Positions 4,598-19,927 of a stretch of 20,000 bases of DNA are shown here, in pieces. Source of the DNA: Chiloscyllium plagiosum (Eukaryota). Every line of letters begins with the position of its first letter. Within the stretch, counting starts at the first letter, position 1. The stretch is taken from NCBI RefSeq assembly GCF_004010195.1, contig NC_057758.1, positions 1,348,343 to 1,368,342 of the forward strand, in the 5' to 3' direction. The notes under the pieces are model-generated. The model was not told where the DNA came from and ran no database searches. It was given only the letters and a program-made list of their open reading frames with translations. The position numbers and the translations under genes are program-made.

Positions 4598-4761
4598 TGT
4601 GGCCCTGATGCTCTCTACATCAAAGGCCTGAGAGGAACATACACTGGAACTCAGTGTACATATCATTGGAGGCTCTGTGTCAACACCTAGCTGACAATCA
4701 AGTGTAGACTGATGAGATAAGACAGGATAGGAACATAGACTCCAGAGTTTTCGCTATAGAG

Positions 4762-5288
4762 AACATAGTATCCAAGCTCAGTTTTGTATCACAGCTAAAT
4801 GTAACATACTTGCAATTTTTCAGGACATATTGAGGATCTTATTAAATTCTGCACACATACACACACACACACACACATGCACACACACACTCACACACAC
4901 ACACTTACACAGACACATAAAGCATTTGTGTCGATTCAATCTTATCTCTGCTATATCCATTAAATCGGCGAGATTGCGTCTGCTATCACATTCTTCTGAT
5001 CCGCAACTTATACGATATGCAAATTCGAAGTCTGTAACATAAGACCCGAACGAAATAATCTCATATTATTGCCTTTAATCGTTCCAATAATGTAAGAGAA
5101 TTGTGAACTGTGTACACAACCGTCTATGATACATTGCTCGTGACATAAACATTAAAATGTTTTAAGTCAGTACCAAACTCTAATTCTTTTTCGATCAGAG
5201 AGTATTTTCTCTTGTGGGTGTTGAGTTTCTTTGAAAAGCAACAAACTGGCACTTCAATTCCATCATTATATGCCTCGAACAGGATCAC
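4762..5288 (-). repeat. Arm C' (inverted copy of 1770-2296: Gypsy RNase H end, TG repeat, LTR start)
   Basis: Reverse-complement match to 1770-2296, about 99% identical. Confidence 0.96.
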
Positions 5289-5514
5289 CTGTACTGATGC
5301 ATCTAGTTACTGTCGCCCATTTACTCAGTTCGAAAGCCACAAGAGATATTGAACACGTATCATGTGGACTCAGTGGAGGATATGGTGAGACTGACTCAAG
5401 TTTTTTTTTCTGAGGGATAAAAGCTGATTGGTTCTTGCATCATGTGATATTTGTCAATCCCAGTTCCTCACTTCGTGATTTATTTGCCCACCAGCGTTTA
5501 CAACTGGATAACAG

Positions 5515-5752
5515 GAGAATGGAGGAACGTATAGAGAATGTTTCACAAGGCAGTCACACCATAAAGTTGGACTTACTGCATGGTTATTGGAAGGAAACGT
5601 CACCAGAGAAAGCAAAAAGAATTTCTGCATTTGTAACCCCAAATGAGCGAGATCAATTGAAAGTCCCTGTCATCACTTTGGAATGACACATGAAAAGAGT
5701 TTGGGCTGTTTTAACAAAGTGTGCGGTCTGTCTGAATGATGCACTGATCTCT
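5515..5752 (+). pseudogene. Independent, diverged Gypsy RT fragment
   Basis: ORF 5435..5686 contains RMEERIENVSQGSHTIKLDLLHGYWK..EKAKRISAFVTPN. It is followed by a ctttggaatga (PFGM-like) remnant and a CAVCLNDALIS remnant at the YxDD position. Confidence 0.8.
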
Positions 5753-6582
5753 CCTGTCTGGCTTTTGAAAGGATTAATCTTCTGTGAGTTTTGTTTTTTA
5801 TTACCAGGATAGCACACCCTACGTCGACGTCATGCACAACAGCTTTAGTCCTTTCCATGGTGTTCCTGTCTATGTCCTCATACAGCTGTAATTTCAACTG
5901 TGTTCTTTGCCTTTGAGACAGGTAGTTTCTCAACCTCTCCCACTCCTCAAGGACTTTCTGATTGTTTGATATATTTTGAAACACATCAAATTCCACAACA
6001 TCTGAATTTGGTTCTTTACTTTGTGGGGCAGTAACTGAGGATATGGGTCTCCCGGGAGGGGAGGACAAAATGGATATAGGAGCACCACAAAATGGCTTCT
6101 TCAAAGTGCACAAAAACAAAGCTTCTGCATTGCTAAATTAAATTGCTCTGAACCAGACAGAAACAAGAAACCGCAGACTGCTGCAATTCCAATAAAAACA
6201 AACCCCAGAAATAATGGTTAATTCTAAATTGCAGTTTGAGACAAAATGGTTCCCAGCTCCTACGTGACAACTTGGTTCCCTGTGCCTACCTGACCACCTG
6301 CAACTAGTCTCTAAAGCTATATAAATAACTAACCACACTTTGCAAGCTGCGAGTCTATGCAGAGGAAATACTAAACCACATGTTGCAAACTGTGAAAAGG
6401 TGACATAAGCTATTACAATTAATCAATATCATTGGTACAAGCTACTATCCATGAAGTATCTATATTTATTGATTGTTTATAACTGTGCGATCATGCTCTT
6501 GTCTGATGATGATTAATGTATATAAACTGTATGTAAACTCTGTAAGATGGTTGTTTTCTTTTGATTGCCAAGAGGTTTTCCT
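5753..6582 (-). repeat. Arm A' (inverted copy of 1-830)
   Basis: Reverse-complement identity to 1-830. Sharp breakpoint at 5752/5753. Confidence 0.97.
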
Positions 6583-6720
6583 GATTCTGGCCAAATCAGA
6601 GCCTGCCAACCCAGCACTGTAACATACAAGAAACAATTGTTTGCATTTTGGACAAAGAGTCGTTTACAGATGTGTTAATTGATCGACCGTGGAACCGAGT
6701 GACTTATAGAGCACCATGAC

Positions 6721-7790
6721 TAACACCTGTTTCTCGCTTTTATAATAAGGTTTCAACATATTCACATGACATACCTGATACAGCTTTTTTTCTATCCGGC
6801 ATCTTTACCAGATAGCTCATCCGACTCAACTCTTTGTCAATTGGATAGGGCCCACTATACCTGGTTTTCAAAGTACCTCCTATCACCAGTGACAATACTA
6901 ACATATCATCCCCACGGGAAAAGTCCGAGTCTCAGAGTTTTTAATCTGCCACCTGCTTCATTGTATGTTCTGCCCTATTTAGGTGCTATTTAGCTAATTC
7001 GCCTACCTGATTTAATCCCTCCCTTACCTCCAATACATAATCTATGTGTGCGATCTCCAACTTCAGTCATGTCAATTTCTATTTAATTCATTTCAAAAGG
7101 CCTCTCACTTCATGTCCGCACGGTAACTCGAAGGTAGAAAAATGAGTAGATTTGTTCTGAGCATTTCTAATGTCAAATAATTCGAATGTGATTACCTTTA
7201 TCCCAGGCACTCGGGTAATCCTGACAGTATGTTTCAATATGGTCTTCAGTGTCTGATGCCACCTTTCCAAAGCTACCTGGGATTCGCAATGATTCGTACT
7301 TGGCTTAAAATGCTCCGCATGTAAATAATCCATGATGTCCTTCAATAGCCGAGCAGTACAATTAGAATTTTGGTCTGACTGAATCTCTCCAGCTAACCCA
7401 TGCCGTGTGAGGAAAGCTACTAACTCCTCGACCACCCTTTTCTGTTTTAATTTTGTCCCTGAAGATCTGGCAGACGGATCTGTGAACAAGGATTGGTTCC
7501 CACTTTTAGATCTTGGGAGGGGACCCACACAATCAATTGTAACCCACATGAAAGCTTCTTCAAATGTGGGAATTGGCAGCTAAAGTGCTGGTTTTATTAT
7601 TGCCTGTGGCTCAACTTATATTGGCAAATATGACACGTACAGCAAAAGGTAACCACATCCTTCTGCATTTCAGGCCAATAGAGATGCTTTTGTACCTCAA
7701 CCTTAATTTTCCGGGCAACCATGTGACCTCCTAAAGGTAATTGGCGTGCTACCCATAGCCCTTCCTGTCTGTATCCTACCGGGGGCACAC
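6721..7790 (-). pseudogene. Decayed Gypsy integrase (H2C2 zinc-binding domain, rve core, C-terminal part)
   Basis: ORF 7597..7788: LPLGGHM...HLYWPEMQKDVVTFCCTCHICQ. ORF 7088..7549: IDCVGPLPRSKSGN...EIQSDQNSN...HCESQVALERWHQTLK. 6721-6780 reads YQVCHVNMLKPYYKSEKQVL on the minus strand. Confidence 0.92.
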
Positions 7791-11510: not shown

Positions 11511-12416
11511 CCTGGGCACCCGCCATCACCAAATATCGAAGTGAGACAGAACCAAAGTGTTATAAAGTTTCAACATGTCATCCTGACTCTTGAACTCGAT
11601 TCGAGCACCACCTTCTTTACCACCCTTCCTAGCTGCGTGACCATTTTCAGGGAGCTATGGACTTGAACCCAAACATCCCTCTGTATATCAGTGTTTTTTC
11701 AGCTTCCTACCATTCTTTGCCTGAAACTTGGTCTCTCAAAGTGCAGGACTTCACACTTAGGTAGATTAACTTCCGCCTGCCATTTCTCTTACCCATATCT
11801 GCTCCTGACCGACATCCCACTGTGCCCATTCACAGCCTTACACAACATCCTTAACTCCACAAATCTTTGCAACGTCTTCAAACTCAGTAACCCAACCAGG
11901 CACATTTTCACCCCAGTAATTTATATGTCATAAACAGCAGAGGCTGTTGTAGGAATCCCTGCGGAACATCATGAGTCACCGGCCTGCAGCCTGAAAATCT
12001 CCCTCCGCCACTACCCTCGTGCTTCTCTGGGCAAGCCAATTCAGATTCCACCAGGCAGAGTCACAGCAAATCCTGTGCATGTTAATCTTGCAGATGAGCC
12101 TACCATGAGGGACGTTACCGAAAGCTGGACTGAAATCTATGCAGGCAACATCCACTGTTCTATCCTCATTGATGACTTTTATCACTGCCTTGAAAAATTT
12201 GAATGAAGTTAGTAAGGCATGGCTTACCCCACACGAAACCATGCTAACTGTCCATAATTCTGCCATGCTTTACTAACTGAGTGCACATCGTATTCCTAAG
12301 AATTGTCTCCAATAGCTTCCTAACCAGCAAAGTGAGTCTCACCAGTCTACAGTTCACTGGATTACCATTATTCACCTTCTTGAATAGCAGAACCACATTA
12401 GCTACTCACTAATTAT

Positions 12417-12730
12417 GGGCGGCATGGTGGCACGGTGGTTAGCACTGATGCTTCACAGCACCAGAGACCCGGGTTCAATTCCCCCATCAGGTGACTGTGT
12501 GGAGTTTGCACATTCTCCCCGTGTCTGCGTGGGTTTCCTCCGGGTGCTCCGGTTTCCTCCCACAGTCCAAAGATGTGCAGGGTCAGGTGAATTGGCCATG
12601 CTAAATTGCCCGTAGTGTTAGGTAAGGGGTAAATGTAGGGGTATGGATGGTTTGCGCTTCGACGAGTCGGTGTGGACTTGTTGGGCCGAAGGGCCTGTTT
12701 CCACACTGTAAGTAATCTAATCTAATCTAA
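12417..12730 (+). mobile_element. Full-length young HE1-type tRNA-derived SINE
   Basis: A box tggcacggtggt 12428-12439, B box ggttcaattcc 12472-12482, V-SINE-like core (tgtgtggagtttgcacattctccccgtgtctgcgtgggtttcctccgggtgctccggtttcctcccaca), (taatc)n tail. Highly similar to 18898-19152. Confidence 0.92.
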
Positions 12731-13366: not shown

Positions 13367-14726
13367 CATAGAGCATAGAACATTAAAGCACAGTACAGGC
13401 CCTTTGACCCTAGATGTTGGGCCAACCTGTGAACCAATCTGAAGCCTATCTATCCTACACTATTCCATTTTCATATGCGTGTTCATCCAATGACATTATA
13501 AATGCCCTTAAAGTTGGCGAGTCTACTGCTGTTACAGTGCATTACACGCCCCTGACTACACTCTGAGTAAAGAACCTGCCTCTGAAATCTGTCCGACATC
13601 TATCACCCTTCAACTTAAAGCTATGTCCCTTTGTGCTAGCCATCACCATCCAAGGAAAAAGTCTCATACTCTCCACCCTGTGGAGGGTTACTCTGATTAT
13701 CTTATACGTCTCAACTAAGTCACCTCTCGACCCTATTGTCTCTAACGATCACAGCCTCAAGTCCTTCACCCATTCGTCATAACACACCTTCTCTCCAAAC
13801 CAGGCAACGTCCTTGTAAATCTCCTCTGCACCCTTTCCACCTCCTTCCTATAACGTGGTCACCAGAACTGTATGTAATATTCCAAGTGTGGCCACACCAG
13901 AGTTTTGTGCAGCTACATCATGACCTCATGGCTCTGAAACTCAATCTCTCTGCTAAAACAAGCCAGCACCATATTTCGTCTGAACAACCCTGTCAAGCTG
14001 GGTGGAAACTTTCAGGGATCTATGTATATGGACACTGAGATCTCTCTGCTCATCTACACTACCAAGAAGCTTACCACTAGCCCAGTACTCTTTATTCCTG
14101 TTGCTCTTTCCAATGGGAACCACCTCAAACTTCTCCCCATTAAACTCCATTTTCCACCTCTCAGCCCAGCTCTGCATCCTATCTACGTCCCTGTGTAACC
14201 TACAACATCCTTCAGCATTATCCACATCTCTACCAACCTTAGTATCATCCGCAAATGTACTAAGCCATCCTTTTAAACCTTCATCTAGGTCATTCATAAA
14301 AATGCCAAACAGCAGTAGACCCAAAAGAGATCCTTCTGGTAGATCACGGGTAACTGGAATTCAGGATAAAACATTTCCCATCAACCACCACCCTCTGTCT
14401 TCTTTCAAGCTAGCCAATTTCTTATCCAATATGATAAATCACCCTCAATGACATGTCTCCGTATTTTGTGCAATAACCGACCTTGGGTAACCTTAGCAAA
14501 TGCCTTACTAAAATCCATACACACCACTTCAACTGCTTTGCCCATATCCAGCTGCTTCGTCACGATCTCAAAGAGCAAAATAAGGTTTGTGAGGCACGAC
14601 GTATCCTTCAAAAAACCCTGCTAATTGTCCCTAAACAACTTATTCCTTTCCAGATGATTATAAATCCGATCTCTTATACCATTCTCCAACACTTAATCCA
14701 CAACTGAAGTGAGGCTCACTGGTCTA
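13367..14726 (-). mobile_element. CR1-clade (HER1-like) LINE, 3' portion: RT C-half and 3' UTR/tail
   Basis: ORF 14405..14611: SCLTNLI..FE.VTKQLDMGKAVEVVCMDFSKAFAKV. ORF 13953..14324: LLFGIFMNDLD..LSTFADDTKVG...WAERWKMEFN.EKFEVV. The tail catagagcatagaacatt is the reverse complement of the CR1 (ttctatg)n-type end. Confidence 0.92.
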
Positions 14727-15009
14727 TTTTGAAACACTCGGGGAAGTGCCTTTTCTGAGTCTTTACATCACTCGTCGATGTTGTGTACTCTCTAGCATCA
14801 CCACAGACCAAGGACCAGGTGATACTGGTGGTATATGAGGCTGGTTGTTTTCGTCATTATTACCAGGGATTTCGACCGACTGATGTTGGTGATGTTGTCG
14901 GTGTTTGTGGACCGGCATCCCCCCCCCCGTTTTTAATTTTTTTTTTGGTGGGGTTCAGCCTGTCCATGTCTCGGTGAAAGATCTTGTCTCACCGTTTGCG
15001 GTCATTTGC

Positions 15010-15540
15010 TCACTTGCCACTGAAGAGTTGTAAGAGTTCGAGTGTCAGTGATAGAGTGAATCTTGATGTCTTTTGGGCGAACGTGTCAAATCTCTCGATA
15101 ACGAGGAATTTCACGAGGCGGTTATTCATGTCCAACCACTTGCCTCGTGCGCCCATCACAAAGCCAAAGTATTTGAGGTCCACGCCTCCCACCAATTCCG
15201 TGACCGCGGCATTTAGTTGTTTACATTTCTCGCGTTTTTCTCGCCATGCTGTTTCCAGTGCTTTACTATCATTCTCGTACCGCACTGTGACACCTACAAC
15301 CGCGATCTTCTCCTCTTTTCTAAATCTGAGATCGGGCTTCCATAGGGAGCCGTCTTTGGCAAACAGCCTGGGCTCCACGTACGGTGTCCAGCCGTACTTA
15401 CTGACATGTTTCTGCAACTAGTCAGCGATCGCGTTATGGTGTTTAATTTGAGCGTTTTTCACAAATGGGTAGCATCCTGAGACGTGTGAGATGGTCTCGG
15501 TTGCCGTCTCACACCTTCGGCACGGTTTGCTTCGGGTTTG
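15010..15540 (-). pseudogene. R2 C-terminal CCHC knuckle and restriction-like endonuclease domain
   Basis: ORF 15010..15417 (EPRLFAKDGSLWKPDLRF...VVGVTVRYE...GARGKW) plus the upstream CRRC..H..GC motif at about 15450-15530. The second catalytic D appears replaced by G. Confidence 0.88.
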
Positions 15541-15556
15541 ACCTTTCTCTAGATAG

Positions 15557-16011
15557 GACTAGCCACACTACCATACATCAGGAGCATCTCGGAACTGACA
15601 GCCAGACTACTGCGACCTACCGACATTCTGGCAATAATACTCACGACGTGTGCTCTGGAACTTGACACCTGCCAAGCCAAGCTGTTTCAGTACCAGTACG
15701 ACACTGGCATCTACCGACAGTGTGGAACATCACCGACGTATATTCAGCACAAAAACACAGGACAAATACAAACACATCGACCTGGACCCAATATACCGAC
15801 CACTACAGCGGACAGCTGAAACTGACAACCGGAAGCGGCAGGGACAGGCCACTATAAACACCGGAGGAAACATCAAAGAAGCGCTTCGCAGGAGGCTCCC
15901 AAGCACTGATGATGTCGCCTAGCCAGGGGGCGAAACGTTTGCAACAAAAACTTCCAGCTCGGCGAACAGAACCACAACAACGAGCACCCGAGCTACAAAT
16001 CTTCTCACAAA
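15557..16011 (+). mobile_element. Second-family Penelope-like element, internally deleted or mosaic, inserted in the R2
   Basis: 14-bp TSD ctttctctagatag at 15543-15556 and 16012-16025. Contains LATLPYIRSISELTARLLRP (PLE thumb/linker-like), KHIDLDPIYRPL (PLE C-terminus-like) and a hammerhead near the 3' end. Confidence 0.85.
15903..15942 (+). ncRNA. Minimal type I hammerhead ribozyme motif
   Basis: Stem I gca/tgc, CUGAUGA 15906-15912, stem II gtcgcct-agcc-agggggc (1 mismatch, 1 GU pair), GAAA 15932-15935, cGUU. Confidence 0.8.
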
Positions 16012-18813
16012 CTTTCTCTAGATAGTGTGGCTCTTGTCGGGTATAGATTACACCGCAGGAGCACTCTGTTTATGAATCTAGAGGATTTTTGTTGTACTCC
16101 GGCTTTTGTCCAAGAATTAGAGATCTTGTCATCTCTAAAGTACTGGATGCCTGCCCCTTGACATTCCAGTTATTTTCCACTTTTCGAATTCCCACTCCCT
16201 CAAACCAACATACCTATTGGGTGGTTTTCTGTCCCCCCCACCCCGCGTTTGCCTCCTGGAGTGCAGGCATGATGTCTTGGATGGCGGTCATCGGGTCCAT
16301 TTCCCCCTCGCCACTTTTGCGGCTACTGGGTTGGAAATTTTCAATTTCCGTGAGGATCTTGAGCTCGGGCAGTCCCGCAACGGTCTCTGTGTTGCTCTCT
16401 CCGTTATATTGAAAGGAGGCCCGAAAGACCACATCACTGGACATGTCGAGTGCCTCGCGTTTGCGAACAATCGCGGATGGGATTTGCACTTCCAGTTTTG
16501 GGACACCTGGACTGCTGTCCCTGTTGCTGGCGTATAGCACTCCATCAGTGGTATGAGGTGGCAGGTGTAGGAATTCTTTGGTGGCGTTACGGATTAGTTG
16601 GTCCAGTTTTACGAGAGTTGCCTGAGATGCTTCTGCCAGGATCAGGTGGAAGTACAGTCTGGGAATGACGTGTATCTTGAGGATCTCCAGCCGTTGTCAT
16701 GGTCGGAGTGGTGCCTGCCTGTATTCCTTTAACCCAGGACTTCAGCTTCTCCTCCCACTCCCTTTCTGCCACACCTGCCCATGGATCGAACCGGGCACCC
16801 AGGTACTGCTCTGTGTCGCCTGGGGGTATGTAGGCTAACTAAGGTTTTACTTTTAAATGTGAAGTGGAATCCCTTCGTCTTCACTGTGTTAATACTGAGG
16901 CCTGTATGGTCTGGAGCAGCTTCAGATTCCTAGCCATTCTGGTGTGTGAGTCGCTGAGAAGGCCGATGTCATCCACGAACACCAAGGTCGAGCAGTGGAC
17001 TCTTCTGCCGCCCAGCGGCATGGAGACCCCTGAGTTGGCCCTCTCCAGAGAGCATACCAATGGATCCAAAGCGACGTTAAATAATATTGGTGAGAGCCTT
17101 GTTTTACGCCCCTCTCAATGTTTATTGGTGTGGTTAAGTTTCCGTCCCCTTCCACCACTGCGGTGTTGCCAGTGCATAGGTCTTCGATGAGACTTACAAA
17201 GGCTTTGGGGAGTTTCACTCTTTGCAAGGATTTGATCAAGAGCTTGTGCCCAACTGAGTCACACGCTTTCGCTCAATCGACAAAGACAAGAGCGAGGTCC
17301 TTGCGATTGTGCTTTGCTCACTTCATGCTGTTTTCAAGATGACAATGTTTTCATTGCATCCAGGAGTGGCTGCTAGGAACCCCTTTTGCCTGGGGTTTAT
17401 TTCGACTGCTTCACTCAGGCGTTTTGCCATTATTTTCGTGAACAGCCGGAGCAGCATCAGACCGATGGTTATTGGTCGCCAGTTGTCAATGTTTTTCAAG
17501 CGGCCCTTATCCTCGCACTTAGGAATCAGGACCGTTCAACTTTTTTTTTTAGTGAATCGGGTATCGTGCCTGACTTTAGTCATAGGGAGAAGAGGCAGGG
17601 TAGACTAGTTTCCTCTTGCTCATGTCCTGCAGTTTCAGGCCGTCTGGTCCGGCGGCACTGTTCTCGTCTATCCCCTTAATGCTCGCTTCAACCTCCTCTA
17701 CCTCGATGGGTTTCATCAAGGACCCATCATCGACTTTGCCAGTGTATAGGGCATACTTATTTATGTTTGATTTTTTATTTGGTGCTGACAGTTTCTCAGA
17801 GAAACATGTCTCCAACTCCTCTTTTGAGAGAGGACAGGAGGATGAGGTTGGTGTCCCCGTGATCTAGTTGGCGCTGGTTAGTTTTGTAAAGCTGCTGTGG
17901 CACTTTGCTACCGGTCATTTTGTCTTTCTTGGCCCGGTCTTTTTGAGGCCTCTTGTCTTGTCCTGTCTTTTCCGACTATTCATTAGTAGGTCGGTAATAC
18001 TTTCCACTCGTCCGATTCCGAGGGGAAGCGTGTCCGGGTCGTTCCTCGCACTCAAGAGCACTTCAGCTCGTGTAAGCTGGTCATCTACGTCCCGATGTTT
18101 AGGGATCGAAGCCGGTGTTCTTCGGCTGGCTCTTTGGCGTTGGGCTCGATTGTCGGAATTTTCCTGGACACTCTCTGCCTCGGGATCGTGCGCGTCTCAT
18201 GGTTGTGAACTCTGCCGGGGTGTTTGCCAGGAGCCTGCGGTTATCCGAGATTTGCTTTGGTGTTTTTGTTTTAAGGATGCTGGCGATGGATTTCTTTGAT
18301 AAACTTGCGTCCTGCAAATCTCACCTCCAATTCCCTCAGGAGTGCCACCCCCTCCTGTGACCGTACGCGGTCACTTCTCCCAGGTTTGCCCTTGACTTTG
18401 GGTGCCGGCTTGAGGCGTTTCTCGTTGCGTAGAACCAGTTGTCTGTGCCTCTCGCGTTGACCAAGGCCCGACTGTGTAGAAAACGGTTGCGCTGCATGCA
18501 AAGTCCCCAGTTGGGGGGTGCTTTGCTCCTTTGCATTTTGGATAGTGGTAGGCGATTGAATGGTATTCTCCTGCTTTGTCACAGCGTGAACATTTTGCTC
18601 GGATGTTCTTTATTCCGTGCACTTTAGTGACATGAGTCTTAAACAGGCTCCCCATGGGGAAGAGGGTCTCTGCAGAACAGCCCATCGGCAGGGTAGTGGA
18701 TGATTACCTCTGGGACAAATGTTCTGCCACATGCTGGCTCAATAACAACTCCTTCCATGAAGGCAGTTGCATCAGCTGTTTCCTCGCCAGTCTCATTTTT
18801 AGTCTTTTTGAGG

Positions 18814-19927
18814 TGATGACCAGAGTTGTCTCTCCTCCCCTTCTTAAACAATGGGACGACTTTTGCTCTCCTTCAGTCTGATTGCACTATTTCCGCCGTT
18901 CAATTCCCGCCTCAGGCGACTGACTGTGTGGAGTTTGCACGTTTTCCCCGTGTCTGCGTGGGTTTCCTCCGGGTGCTCCGGTTTCCTCCCACAGTCCAAA
19001 GATGTGCAGGTCAGGTGAATTGGCCATGCTAAATTGCCCGTAGTGTTAGGTAAGGGGTAAATGTAGGGGTATGGGTGGGTTACGCTTCGGCGGGTCGGTG
19101 TGGACTTGTTGGGCCGAAGGGCCTGTTTCCACACTGTAAGTAATCTAATCTATTCCTGTGGACAAAATGATGACAAAAACATCAAAGCCAAAGGATCGGG
19201 AATCTCCTCCCTCGCTTTCCAGAGAATCCTAGGATAAATCCCAATCGGCCCAGGGGGCTTGTCTATGTTCACAGTGACCAGAATTGCTAACACCTCATCC
19301 CTGTGAACCTCAATCACATTTATTCTAGCAGTGTGCATCTCAGTACTCTCATTGACAACACTGTCATTTGCCAGTGTGAAAACTGAGGAAAATTATTCAT
19401 TTAGAAATTCTACTATCTCCGTTTACTCCACGCACAACTTCCCACTATAATCCATGATTGGCCCTAATCTTACACTGCTCATTCTTTGATTCCTGACATA
19501 CCTGTAGAAAATATTATGGTTTTCCTTGTTCCTATCTGCCAACGACTTCGCATGTCTCCTCCTTGTTCTACTTAGCTCTCGCGGTTTCTTGGGTGACTAG
19601 CAACTCTCAAGTACCTTAACTGAAACTTCACATCCTATCCTAACATAAGCCTTCTTCTTCCTTTTGACAAGAACTTCAGCTTCACAGCTCTCTGGTTCAA
19701 CAACTTCCTCCCTGCTGGATAGGTACTTATTTATCAAGGACACGCAGTAGTTGTTCATTTGTGCCCATCCCCTGCAGATTCCCTCCTCATCCTATGCATC
19801 CTAAAACTTGCATAATCGCATCATAATTGCCTTTACCCCAGCTATAACTCCTGCCATCCGGTATACAGCTACCCCTTTCCATCGCTAAAGTTAACATAAG
19901 CGAATTGCGGTCACTCTCACCAAAGTG
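18814..19927 (-). mobile_element. CR1 LINE, 5' continuation of the 13367-14726 copy, interrupted by an HE1 at 18898-19152
   Basis: The minus strand reads VVPLFKKGRRDNSG up to the R2 junction, and RPVSLTS resumes at about 14725. ORF 19150..19338 contains KPPGPIGIYPRILWKAREEI.PLALMF (CR1 KSPGPDGIYPR motif). Confidence 0.88.
18898..19152 (+). mobile_element. 5'-truncated young HE1-type SINE
   Basis: Starts inside the B box (gttcaattcc). Near-identical to 12473-12722 apart from a few substitutions and a short indel. (taatc)n tail. Confidence 0.92.

Follow-up and report, generated by a model that had tools for sequence, protein, structure and literature searches.

The DNA described here is a stretch of 20,000 nucleotides (the window) from the shark Chiloscyllium plagiosum, assembly GCF_004010195.1, contig NC_057758.1, positions 1,348,343 to 1,368,342. 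Its minus strand carries, from about 18813 to 14727, a decayed lineage-A remnant of the retrotransposon R2, which lies inside a long interspersed element (LINE) of the CR1 type. The CR1 site mimics the 28S target of R2 and is a real, repeatable and lineage-specific off-target hotspot for the R2 family to which the remnant belongs, here called family A. An earlier sequence-only reading of this DNA had proposed two origins for such a copy, namely an off-target insertion guided by residual 28S-like recognition, or a lineage that had lost or changed its target.

The R2 remnant and its host element

The remnant consists of a 3' untranslated region (14727..15009, minus strand), which ends in GTGTTTCAAAA at 14727 as other copies of the family do, and a decayed open reading frame (ORF; 15010..18790, minus strand) recognized by translation, tblastn and a protein tree. 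With a full-length shark R2 protein as the query, tblastn covers positions 18643-15058, but the alignment is broken into 11 pieces by frameshifts and contains 10 stops. The decayed translation still contains motifs that we take to be three zinc fingers (ZnF3/2/1, about 18650-18400), Myb (about 18370-18230), reverse transcriptase (RT, about 17550-16720), CCHC (about 15530-15460) and the restriction-like endonuclease (RLE, 15013-15417), with approximate bounds. The C-terminal frame at 15013-15417 matches the solved R2 proteins 9nl2, 9nl3 and 9dou (E 1e-20 to 2e-16). Alignment to 9nl2/9nl3 shows the C-terminal CCHC and RLE to be present, and in the KPDL...DVTV motif the second acidic residue has changed. 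Pfam gave only weak RT matches, in the broken frames of the window. The sequence-only reading had called this ORF remnant nearly complete. However, about 520 nt at the 5' end and the leader are missing in comparison with full-length copies of 4.2-4.27 kb, and a later 455-bp insert flanked by a 14-bp target-site duplication (TSD) interrupts the copy.

In a quick protein tree without labelled R8, R9, NeSL or Utopia sequences, the region from the RT to the C-terminus groups with vertebrate R2, as the sequence-only reading had expected. The window copy falls in family A (support 100), catshark proteins are the sister group (99), and the shark clade (100) lies within a vertebrate clade (99) alongside bird, turtle and fish proteins. 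Family A and a second family, B, are two well-supported shark lineages, and B groups with a bamboo-shark protein. The three ZnF and Myb motifs are also found in sister copies, and protein P0001 has three ZnF-like motifs.

No ribosomal RNA sequence adjoins the remnant, and an Rfam scan of the whole window returned neither an rRNA match nor any other. On the element strand the 3' junction is GTGTTTCAAAA|TAGACCAGTGAGCC, at 14727|14726. The 5' junction between the truncated R2 and the upstream CR1 half lies at 18810..18819 (minus strand). It can be read as blunt, as originally proposed, if two of the last five target bases have been substituted, or alternatively as a 5-bp loss with filler, and neither reading leaves a TSD.

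The sequence on either side is CR1 ORF2, which the insertion divides at GN(Y)|RPVSL. The 3' half of the host CR1 (13390..14726, minus strand, lower end approximate) extends from RPVSL through the RT to the tail. It contains an RVT_1 match at 13956-14360 and is 81% identical to an empty CR1 copy that begins precisely at the insertion site. The 5' part of ORF2 (18820..19900, minus strand, upper end approximate) had been thought contiguous as well, but it is interrupted by a repeat resembling a short interspersed element (SINE) at 18898..19155 (plus strand), which has many matches in the examined loci. The upstream half of the target site, with its 28S-like block, is at 18814..18845 (minus strand), and the window copy has the 28S-like T at -11.

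The CR1 site as a 28S mimic

The empty CR1 site is GGGAGTAGAGACAACCCTGGTAATTA|TAGACCAG, and the empty 28S site of the same genome is GGGAGTAACTATGACTCTCTTAAGG|TAGCCAAA. The resemblance between them had been described as needing gaps and as possibly due to chance. Neither holds: 15 of 23 bases match without gaps at offset -1, together with TAG, compared with 5-9 at other offsets. In each of three CR1 copies, with 6274-7438 positions scored, the site ranks first in likeness to 28S, and none of 658,546 flank positions has TAG with at least 15/23 matches. Chance resemblance was rejected. A stricter scan of the examined DNA for a 7-of-7 upstream block plus TAG was uninformative, with four matches, three of which lie in or at R2 copies.

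The site is abundant, with 2266 matches to the empty-site pattern in the genome at two mismatches or fewer. Four public sequencing runs contain it too, as loose ends. A contig of run X1 spans an R2-CR1 junction at about 89% identity and comes from another copy than the window locus, and none of the runs verified the exact window locus. An RNA run yielded 25 reads, mostly on CR1, which are uninformative on expression.

The upstream block distinguishes the CR1 copies that received R2. Among 18 empty CR1 copies in the examined DNA, four or five have the block, and 13-14 share the downstream sequence with other sequence upstream. All 17 inserted sites belong to the upstream-block subfamily and none (0/17) to subfamilies without it (p 2e-6 to 7e-6). 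The 28S-like T at -11 occurs in 8 of 15 readable inserted sites versus 11 of 100 empty ones (p 4e-4), the latter being the first 100 of 955 empty sites, little-decayed copies that may be of another age or subfamily. The subfamily bias and the excess of T at -11 therefore indicate that the upstream sequence was read.

Off-targets of the R2 protein R2Tg in human cells combine downstream bases that match the RNA tail with a T/C-rich and then a T/A-rich tract (PMC12222951). Their logo also has a 28S-like block at -25 to -19, which is bound by RT6a and ZnF1 (PMC12222951). All three features are present at the CR1 site.

Elsewhere the likeness is weaker. The 32 non-CR1 flanks begin, position by position, with T in 30, A in 27, G in 17 and C in 14. 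Upstream of 18 truncated copies off CR1, the likeness to 28S is mildly raised (mean 9.3 vs 8.2 of 18, p 0.0075). One site (L049) is readable through its TSD and matches 28S at 15/25 in exact register (background 2e-4). This R2 insertion (C37, about 25189500-25191300, 92% identity) has a TSD of 97 bp. Another copy, L080, has a possible 48-bp TSD within a tandem repeat, which makes it ambiguous.

Recurrent and independent insertions

When 150 of 436 candidates from a search with the RLE frame were scored, 151 matches were obtained, which fall into two identity groups. For family A, 66 loci and the window were examined, 12 were dropped and 55 junctions were kept. The dropped loci are L061 and L062 (100% identical to L063), L074, L076, L087 and L089 (without a 3' end), L084 (no match), L078 (end interrupted), L184 and L185 (without a clear R2 body), L186 (left unanalysed), and L081, in which a 3' deletion reaches into CR1 36 bp beyond the site. 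A flank-blind search for the family A 3' end found 39 places, 34 of them already in the sample, and a search for R2-CR1 junctions found 15 places, all already included. Because these searches added little, the sample is probably near complete.

The CR1 site of the window holds 18 of the 55 independent 3' junctions (33%), 17 of them exact and one (L058) 2 nt upstream. Three others lie at a second CR1-like position, two have 28S tails and 32 are elsewhere. The share of 33% has a biased denominator because rDNA copies are lost by turnover. It exceeds the operational threshold for target specificity, more than 20% of flanks in one sequence type (PMC4494074). By chance, 1e-4 to 5e-4 junctions would be expected at the site, and at most 1e-2 if a TA-type start is presupposed, a rough estimate in which site numbers were extrapolated from 978 kb. 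Only about 18 of at least 2266 CR1 sites are filled by family A.

The inserts at the site range from about 46 nt to 4.27 kb, and the upstream CR1 half is kept in 17/18. They share an exact 3' end, varying 5' truncation and the lack of a TSD. In a tree of 55 family A 3' segments, with 17 site copies including L081, the CR1-site label changes 15 times, compared with 14.9 in shuffles. At least ten of the changes are forced by well-supported branches, and the site copies are polyphyletic. The insertions are independent events, because their lengths differ and the copies are scattered over the family tree. End branches range from about 0.15 down to 0.02, and the site has therefore been used through the whole history of family A.

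A second, smaller hotspot is a CR1-like RT position in other subfamilies (L038, L067, L086, L123). It holds three family A copies and one of family B, as judged by eye with weak BLAST support for L038 only. The three loci L061, L062 and L063, on three chromosomes (C28, C17, C1), have the 100% identical old R2 copy and 3' flank over 2.0-4.3 kb and different upstream DNA, which represents either assembly duplication or very recent copying.

Leaders, ribozyme and tails of the source copies

A 28S-derived leader precedes 20 of 24 5'-complete family A copies. Among the 24, eight leaders start at -28, one at -29 and two at -27, the others are shorter, and none extends beyond -29. R2 self-cleavage occurs most often at 28S -28 (PMC3774820). 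The 5' end of family A probably adopts a fold like that of the hepatitis delta virus (HDV) ribozyme, a putative assignment from the sequence, and this part is missing from the truncated window copy. The structure was drawn by eye from family A sequences, and P1 was left out of the count. The P2, P3, P1.1 and P4 pairs, scored over 22 sister copies, are formed in 91% of the 403 cells, and 17 double changes occur.

Family A copies rarely carry 28S at the 3' end: tails of 14 and 63 nt, which match the canonical site, occur in 2/55. The -28 leaders, the HDV-like fold and the 28S tails together indicate that the RNA came from masters resident in 28S. Family A itself looks extinct in this assembly, because no copy embedded in long 28S sequence was found and the longest open family A frame in the sample is 531 aa. 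A 1555-aa open frame at L161 was rejected as mostly assembly gap.

Loci chosen for a 28S motif (L091-L120) were also inspected. By eye, 26 of 30 such motifs are preceded by R2-type 3' ends, and 28S tails of 39 to >200 nt occur at dispersed sites. Of these loci, L094 and L095 represent 28S fragments whose starts lie upstream of the R2 site by 14 and 9 nt, respectively.

The sister family B

Family B has long ORFs, and five copies have 28S on both sides, among 20 loci chosen for 28S. It is dispersed as well: of 40 loci chosen flank-blind, 27 have a readable end. None of these 27 is at the CR1 site, compared with 18/55 for family A (p 4e-4), and a junction pattern search for family B at the site found none. 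Both families thus spill off target, and the CR1 mimic is used by A only. The ZnF1 helix is TQSGLGQH in A (10/12) and mostly S/T-ARGLGQH or TAIGLGQH in B. Family A has the RT6a loop KRKT, and B-type proteins have KNKS/T; this contrast comes from a few copies, as pattern searches for the RT6a and ZnF2 motifs across copies gave no match. As far as sequence comparison goes, we infer that these two differences are candidate causes of the contrast.

In L125 and L159, family B 3' ends lead straight into sequence resembling the family's own 5' start, which suggests head-to-tail R2 tandems. Three family B copies (L135, L138 and L142, all on C8) have a common 3' flank, through local duplication or another repeat hotspot.

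Origin of the hotspot

The window copy is a dead, 5'-truncated R2. Probably the rDNA-resident masters of its family occasionally inserted off target, with the multicopy CR1 look-alike as their best decoy. A master in 28S would have been co-transcribed and its RNA freed at -28 by the HDV-like ribozyme, with a short 28S tail. By analogy with R2Tg structures and the off-target logo, the protein would have bound the GGGAGTA block through RT6a and ZnF1. It would also have bound the C/T-rich and then T/A-rich tract and tolerated one extra base before the nick. Pairing of the RNA tail with TAG at the nick may then have provided the primer for reverse transcription, and the products have the ends described above. 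Such copies would persist by escaping rDNA turnover, so that their apparent share would be inflated. Some 55 copies, accumulated over the long life of family A, would fit a low rate of off-target insertion. How many insertions were on target is not recoverable, a caveat also made in PMC13580325. Of the two proposed origins, off-target insertion by residual 28S-like recognition is thus supported, and it is recurrent.

Several points weigh against this account. In this assembly, in which rDNA is poorly assembled, no family A copy between two long stretches of 28S was found, and the rDNA residence of the masters, likely as it is, is deduced indirectly. Relative to 28S, the upstream block is shifted by 1 nt, and the offsets (0, -1) were picked post hoc; the doubt about the age or subfamily of the -11 control also counts here. 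Most non-CR1 sites show little upstream likeness, and 9/18 score 8 or less, as controls do. In a second study, R2Tg off-targets had little in common apart from primer-complementary bases (PMC11371274). Finally, mimicry and abundance are insufficient alone, because family B shares the 28S target and has 0/27 at the site.

A lineage that had lost or changed its target was the second proposal. In its strong form it is not supported. Full retargeting to CR1 was rejected because of the 28S leaders (20/24), the 28S tails (2/55) and the 37/55 junctions elsewhere. Complete loss of specificity was likewise rejected: the tabulated 3' flanks are not random as in R2NS elements, with 18/55 at one site and TA(G) starts in most others. 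A weaker form, a lineage-specific preference, stands. Its boldest version, in which changed DNA-reading parts had brought family A midway through a target switch and the 1-nt-longer CR1 mimic was a genuine, lifelong second target that the sister was unable to use, is conceivable and somewhat doubtful.

A related explanation, a partial target switch, appears unlikely to us. It holds that family A came to read DNA differently, through its spacing tolerance or through changes in ZnF1 or RT6a, which made the CR1 site a true second target, and that some full-length CR1-resident copies acted as masters by read-through transcription. The contrast between A and B, the steady use of the site through the whole tree, the differing ZnF1 helix and RT6a loop, and the leader and HDV-like fold retained by full-length CR1-site copies would all fit. 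However, the leaders of non-CR1 copies hold 28S sequence only and never CR1 upstream sequence. In younger subfamilies (5' ends, L031-L058) the leader is longer or doubled, stepwise via duplicated 28S target sequence, and this re-acquisition or duplication suggests passage through 28S. The tails are also 28S and not CR1, two thirds of the copies lie elsewhere, and most of the CR1 sites are unfilled.

It is quite improbable that the site is a generic nick-prone spot, cut for example by another endonuclease, where R2 RNA merely primed via TAG pairing. TAG-like starts do dominate all off-target junctions, and what the off-targets in PMC11371274 chiefly share is tail pairing. However, CR1 subfamilies with the same TAGACCAG and other upstream sequence are commoner yet unused, the site is not used by family B although its tail is the same, and T at -11 is enriched. 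A single old R2-in-CR1 chimera multiplied by CR1 machinery or segmental duplication, which would make the hotspot one event, is hardly credible and was rejected. In its favour, the upstream half is missing from L071 and L081, which do have the 3' CR1 flank, and the tree places the window copy next to L033 (support 89). It is largely refuted by the different R2 truncations that adjoin one and the same upstream half, with both CR1 halves kept in 17/18, and the site copies are polyphyletic.

Comparison with known systems

The shark proteins belong to the same family as those of vertebrate lineage-A R2 (R2Tg 9dou; 9nl2/9nl3), with E values of 1e-100 to 3e-93 vs 1e-39 for 8gh6, presumably R2Bm. They share with lineage-A R2 the three ZnF and Myb motifs, the -28 leader, the HDV-like fold and the lack of a regular TSD. 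A shifted target of the R8/R9 type was not found: the tails fit the canonical site, and in contrast to the long regular TSD of R9, a long TSD is clear in one copy (L049) and ambiguous in another (L080). Structures of A-clade R2 are described in PMC11601368.

In the part available, Hassan et al. (PMC13188248) describe shark R2 only as embedded in 28S, and shark R2 in 28S is also reported in PMC12247875. Family A differs in having about 55 dispersed copies, a third of them at one LINE site. The literature search found no R2 hotspot in CR1 and no dispersed shark R2; subscription journals, Repbase, supplements and Fell et al. 2025 lay outside it. The R2Tg off-targets in human cells (PMC12222951; PMC11371274) have the downstream tail match, the -25 to -19 block and the tract in common with the CR1 site. 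They are engineered and rare (under or about 1%), whereas family A is a natural germline record with a single-base hotspot and a 1-nt offset.

Other R2-lineage elements outside 28S are R2NS-1_SMed and R2NS-1_CSi (PMC5035012). They are of the D and C clades and are described as non-specific, whereas family A keeps the 28S leader, tails and 28S-like sites. Crocodilian Utopia with weakened U2 specificity (PMC4640811) and the non-28S R1 and R2 copies of Drosophila (PMC2718515) are likewise dispersed at target-like sequences, often repeats. In Drosophila, the R1 copies are accompanied by 28S sequence on the upstream side and by at most 14 nt of it downstream (PMC2718515). The available parts of the Utopia and Drosophila accounts contain no single-base hotspot in an autonomous LINE and no contrast between sister lineages, and family A has both. 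Tx1, Tx1-Mar and Tx1-8_Crp (PMC4494074) also insert repeatedly in one place of a mobile element, with >20% of flanks. Those elements use an apurinic/apyrimidinic-type endonuclease and have a transposon as the main target, whereas family A is an RLE-type R2 whose main target probably remained 28S.

R2 proteins are under development for gene insertion into rDNA. In this genome, two sister R2 lineages have left a natural record of off-target insertion, which reproduces the off-target logo of human cells. A multicopy repeat can serve as a single-base off-target sink, and the lineage contrast of 33% vs 0% makes the determinants of spacing tolerance directly testable. The record suggests a route by which rDNA-specific elements could gain transposon targets, and a 2026 review calls the split into specific and non-specific elements an oversimplification (PMC13580325). 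If family A was indeed midway through a switch, A and B would form a natural protein pair that pinpoints what sets R2 spacing and specificity. Turtle and bird R2-like proteins under host gene names on long contigs (P0005, P0034, P0050 and P0061) hint at dispersed R2 copies in other vertebrates.

Other features of the window

The 455-bp insert in the remnant (15557..16011, plus strand) is absent from sister copies, and its TSD lies at 15543-15556 and 16012-16025. It has a hammerhead-like core by motif (15906-15936, plus strand) and no Pfam match, and we assume it to be Penelope-like. Parts of it recur in several other examined loci at 87-98% identity. The SINE-like repeat in the CR1 5' half, which we take to be a shark tRNA-derived SINE, has a second copy at about 12415-12725. 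Decayed frames at 7088-7579 resemble RNase H and integrase, presumably of an element of the long terminal repeat type. The window also contains an inverted duplication (about 160-2300 and 4730-6420) with identical ORFs on opposite strands.

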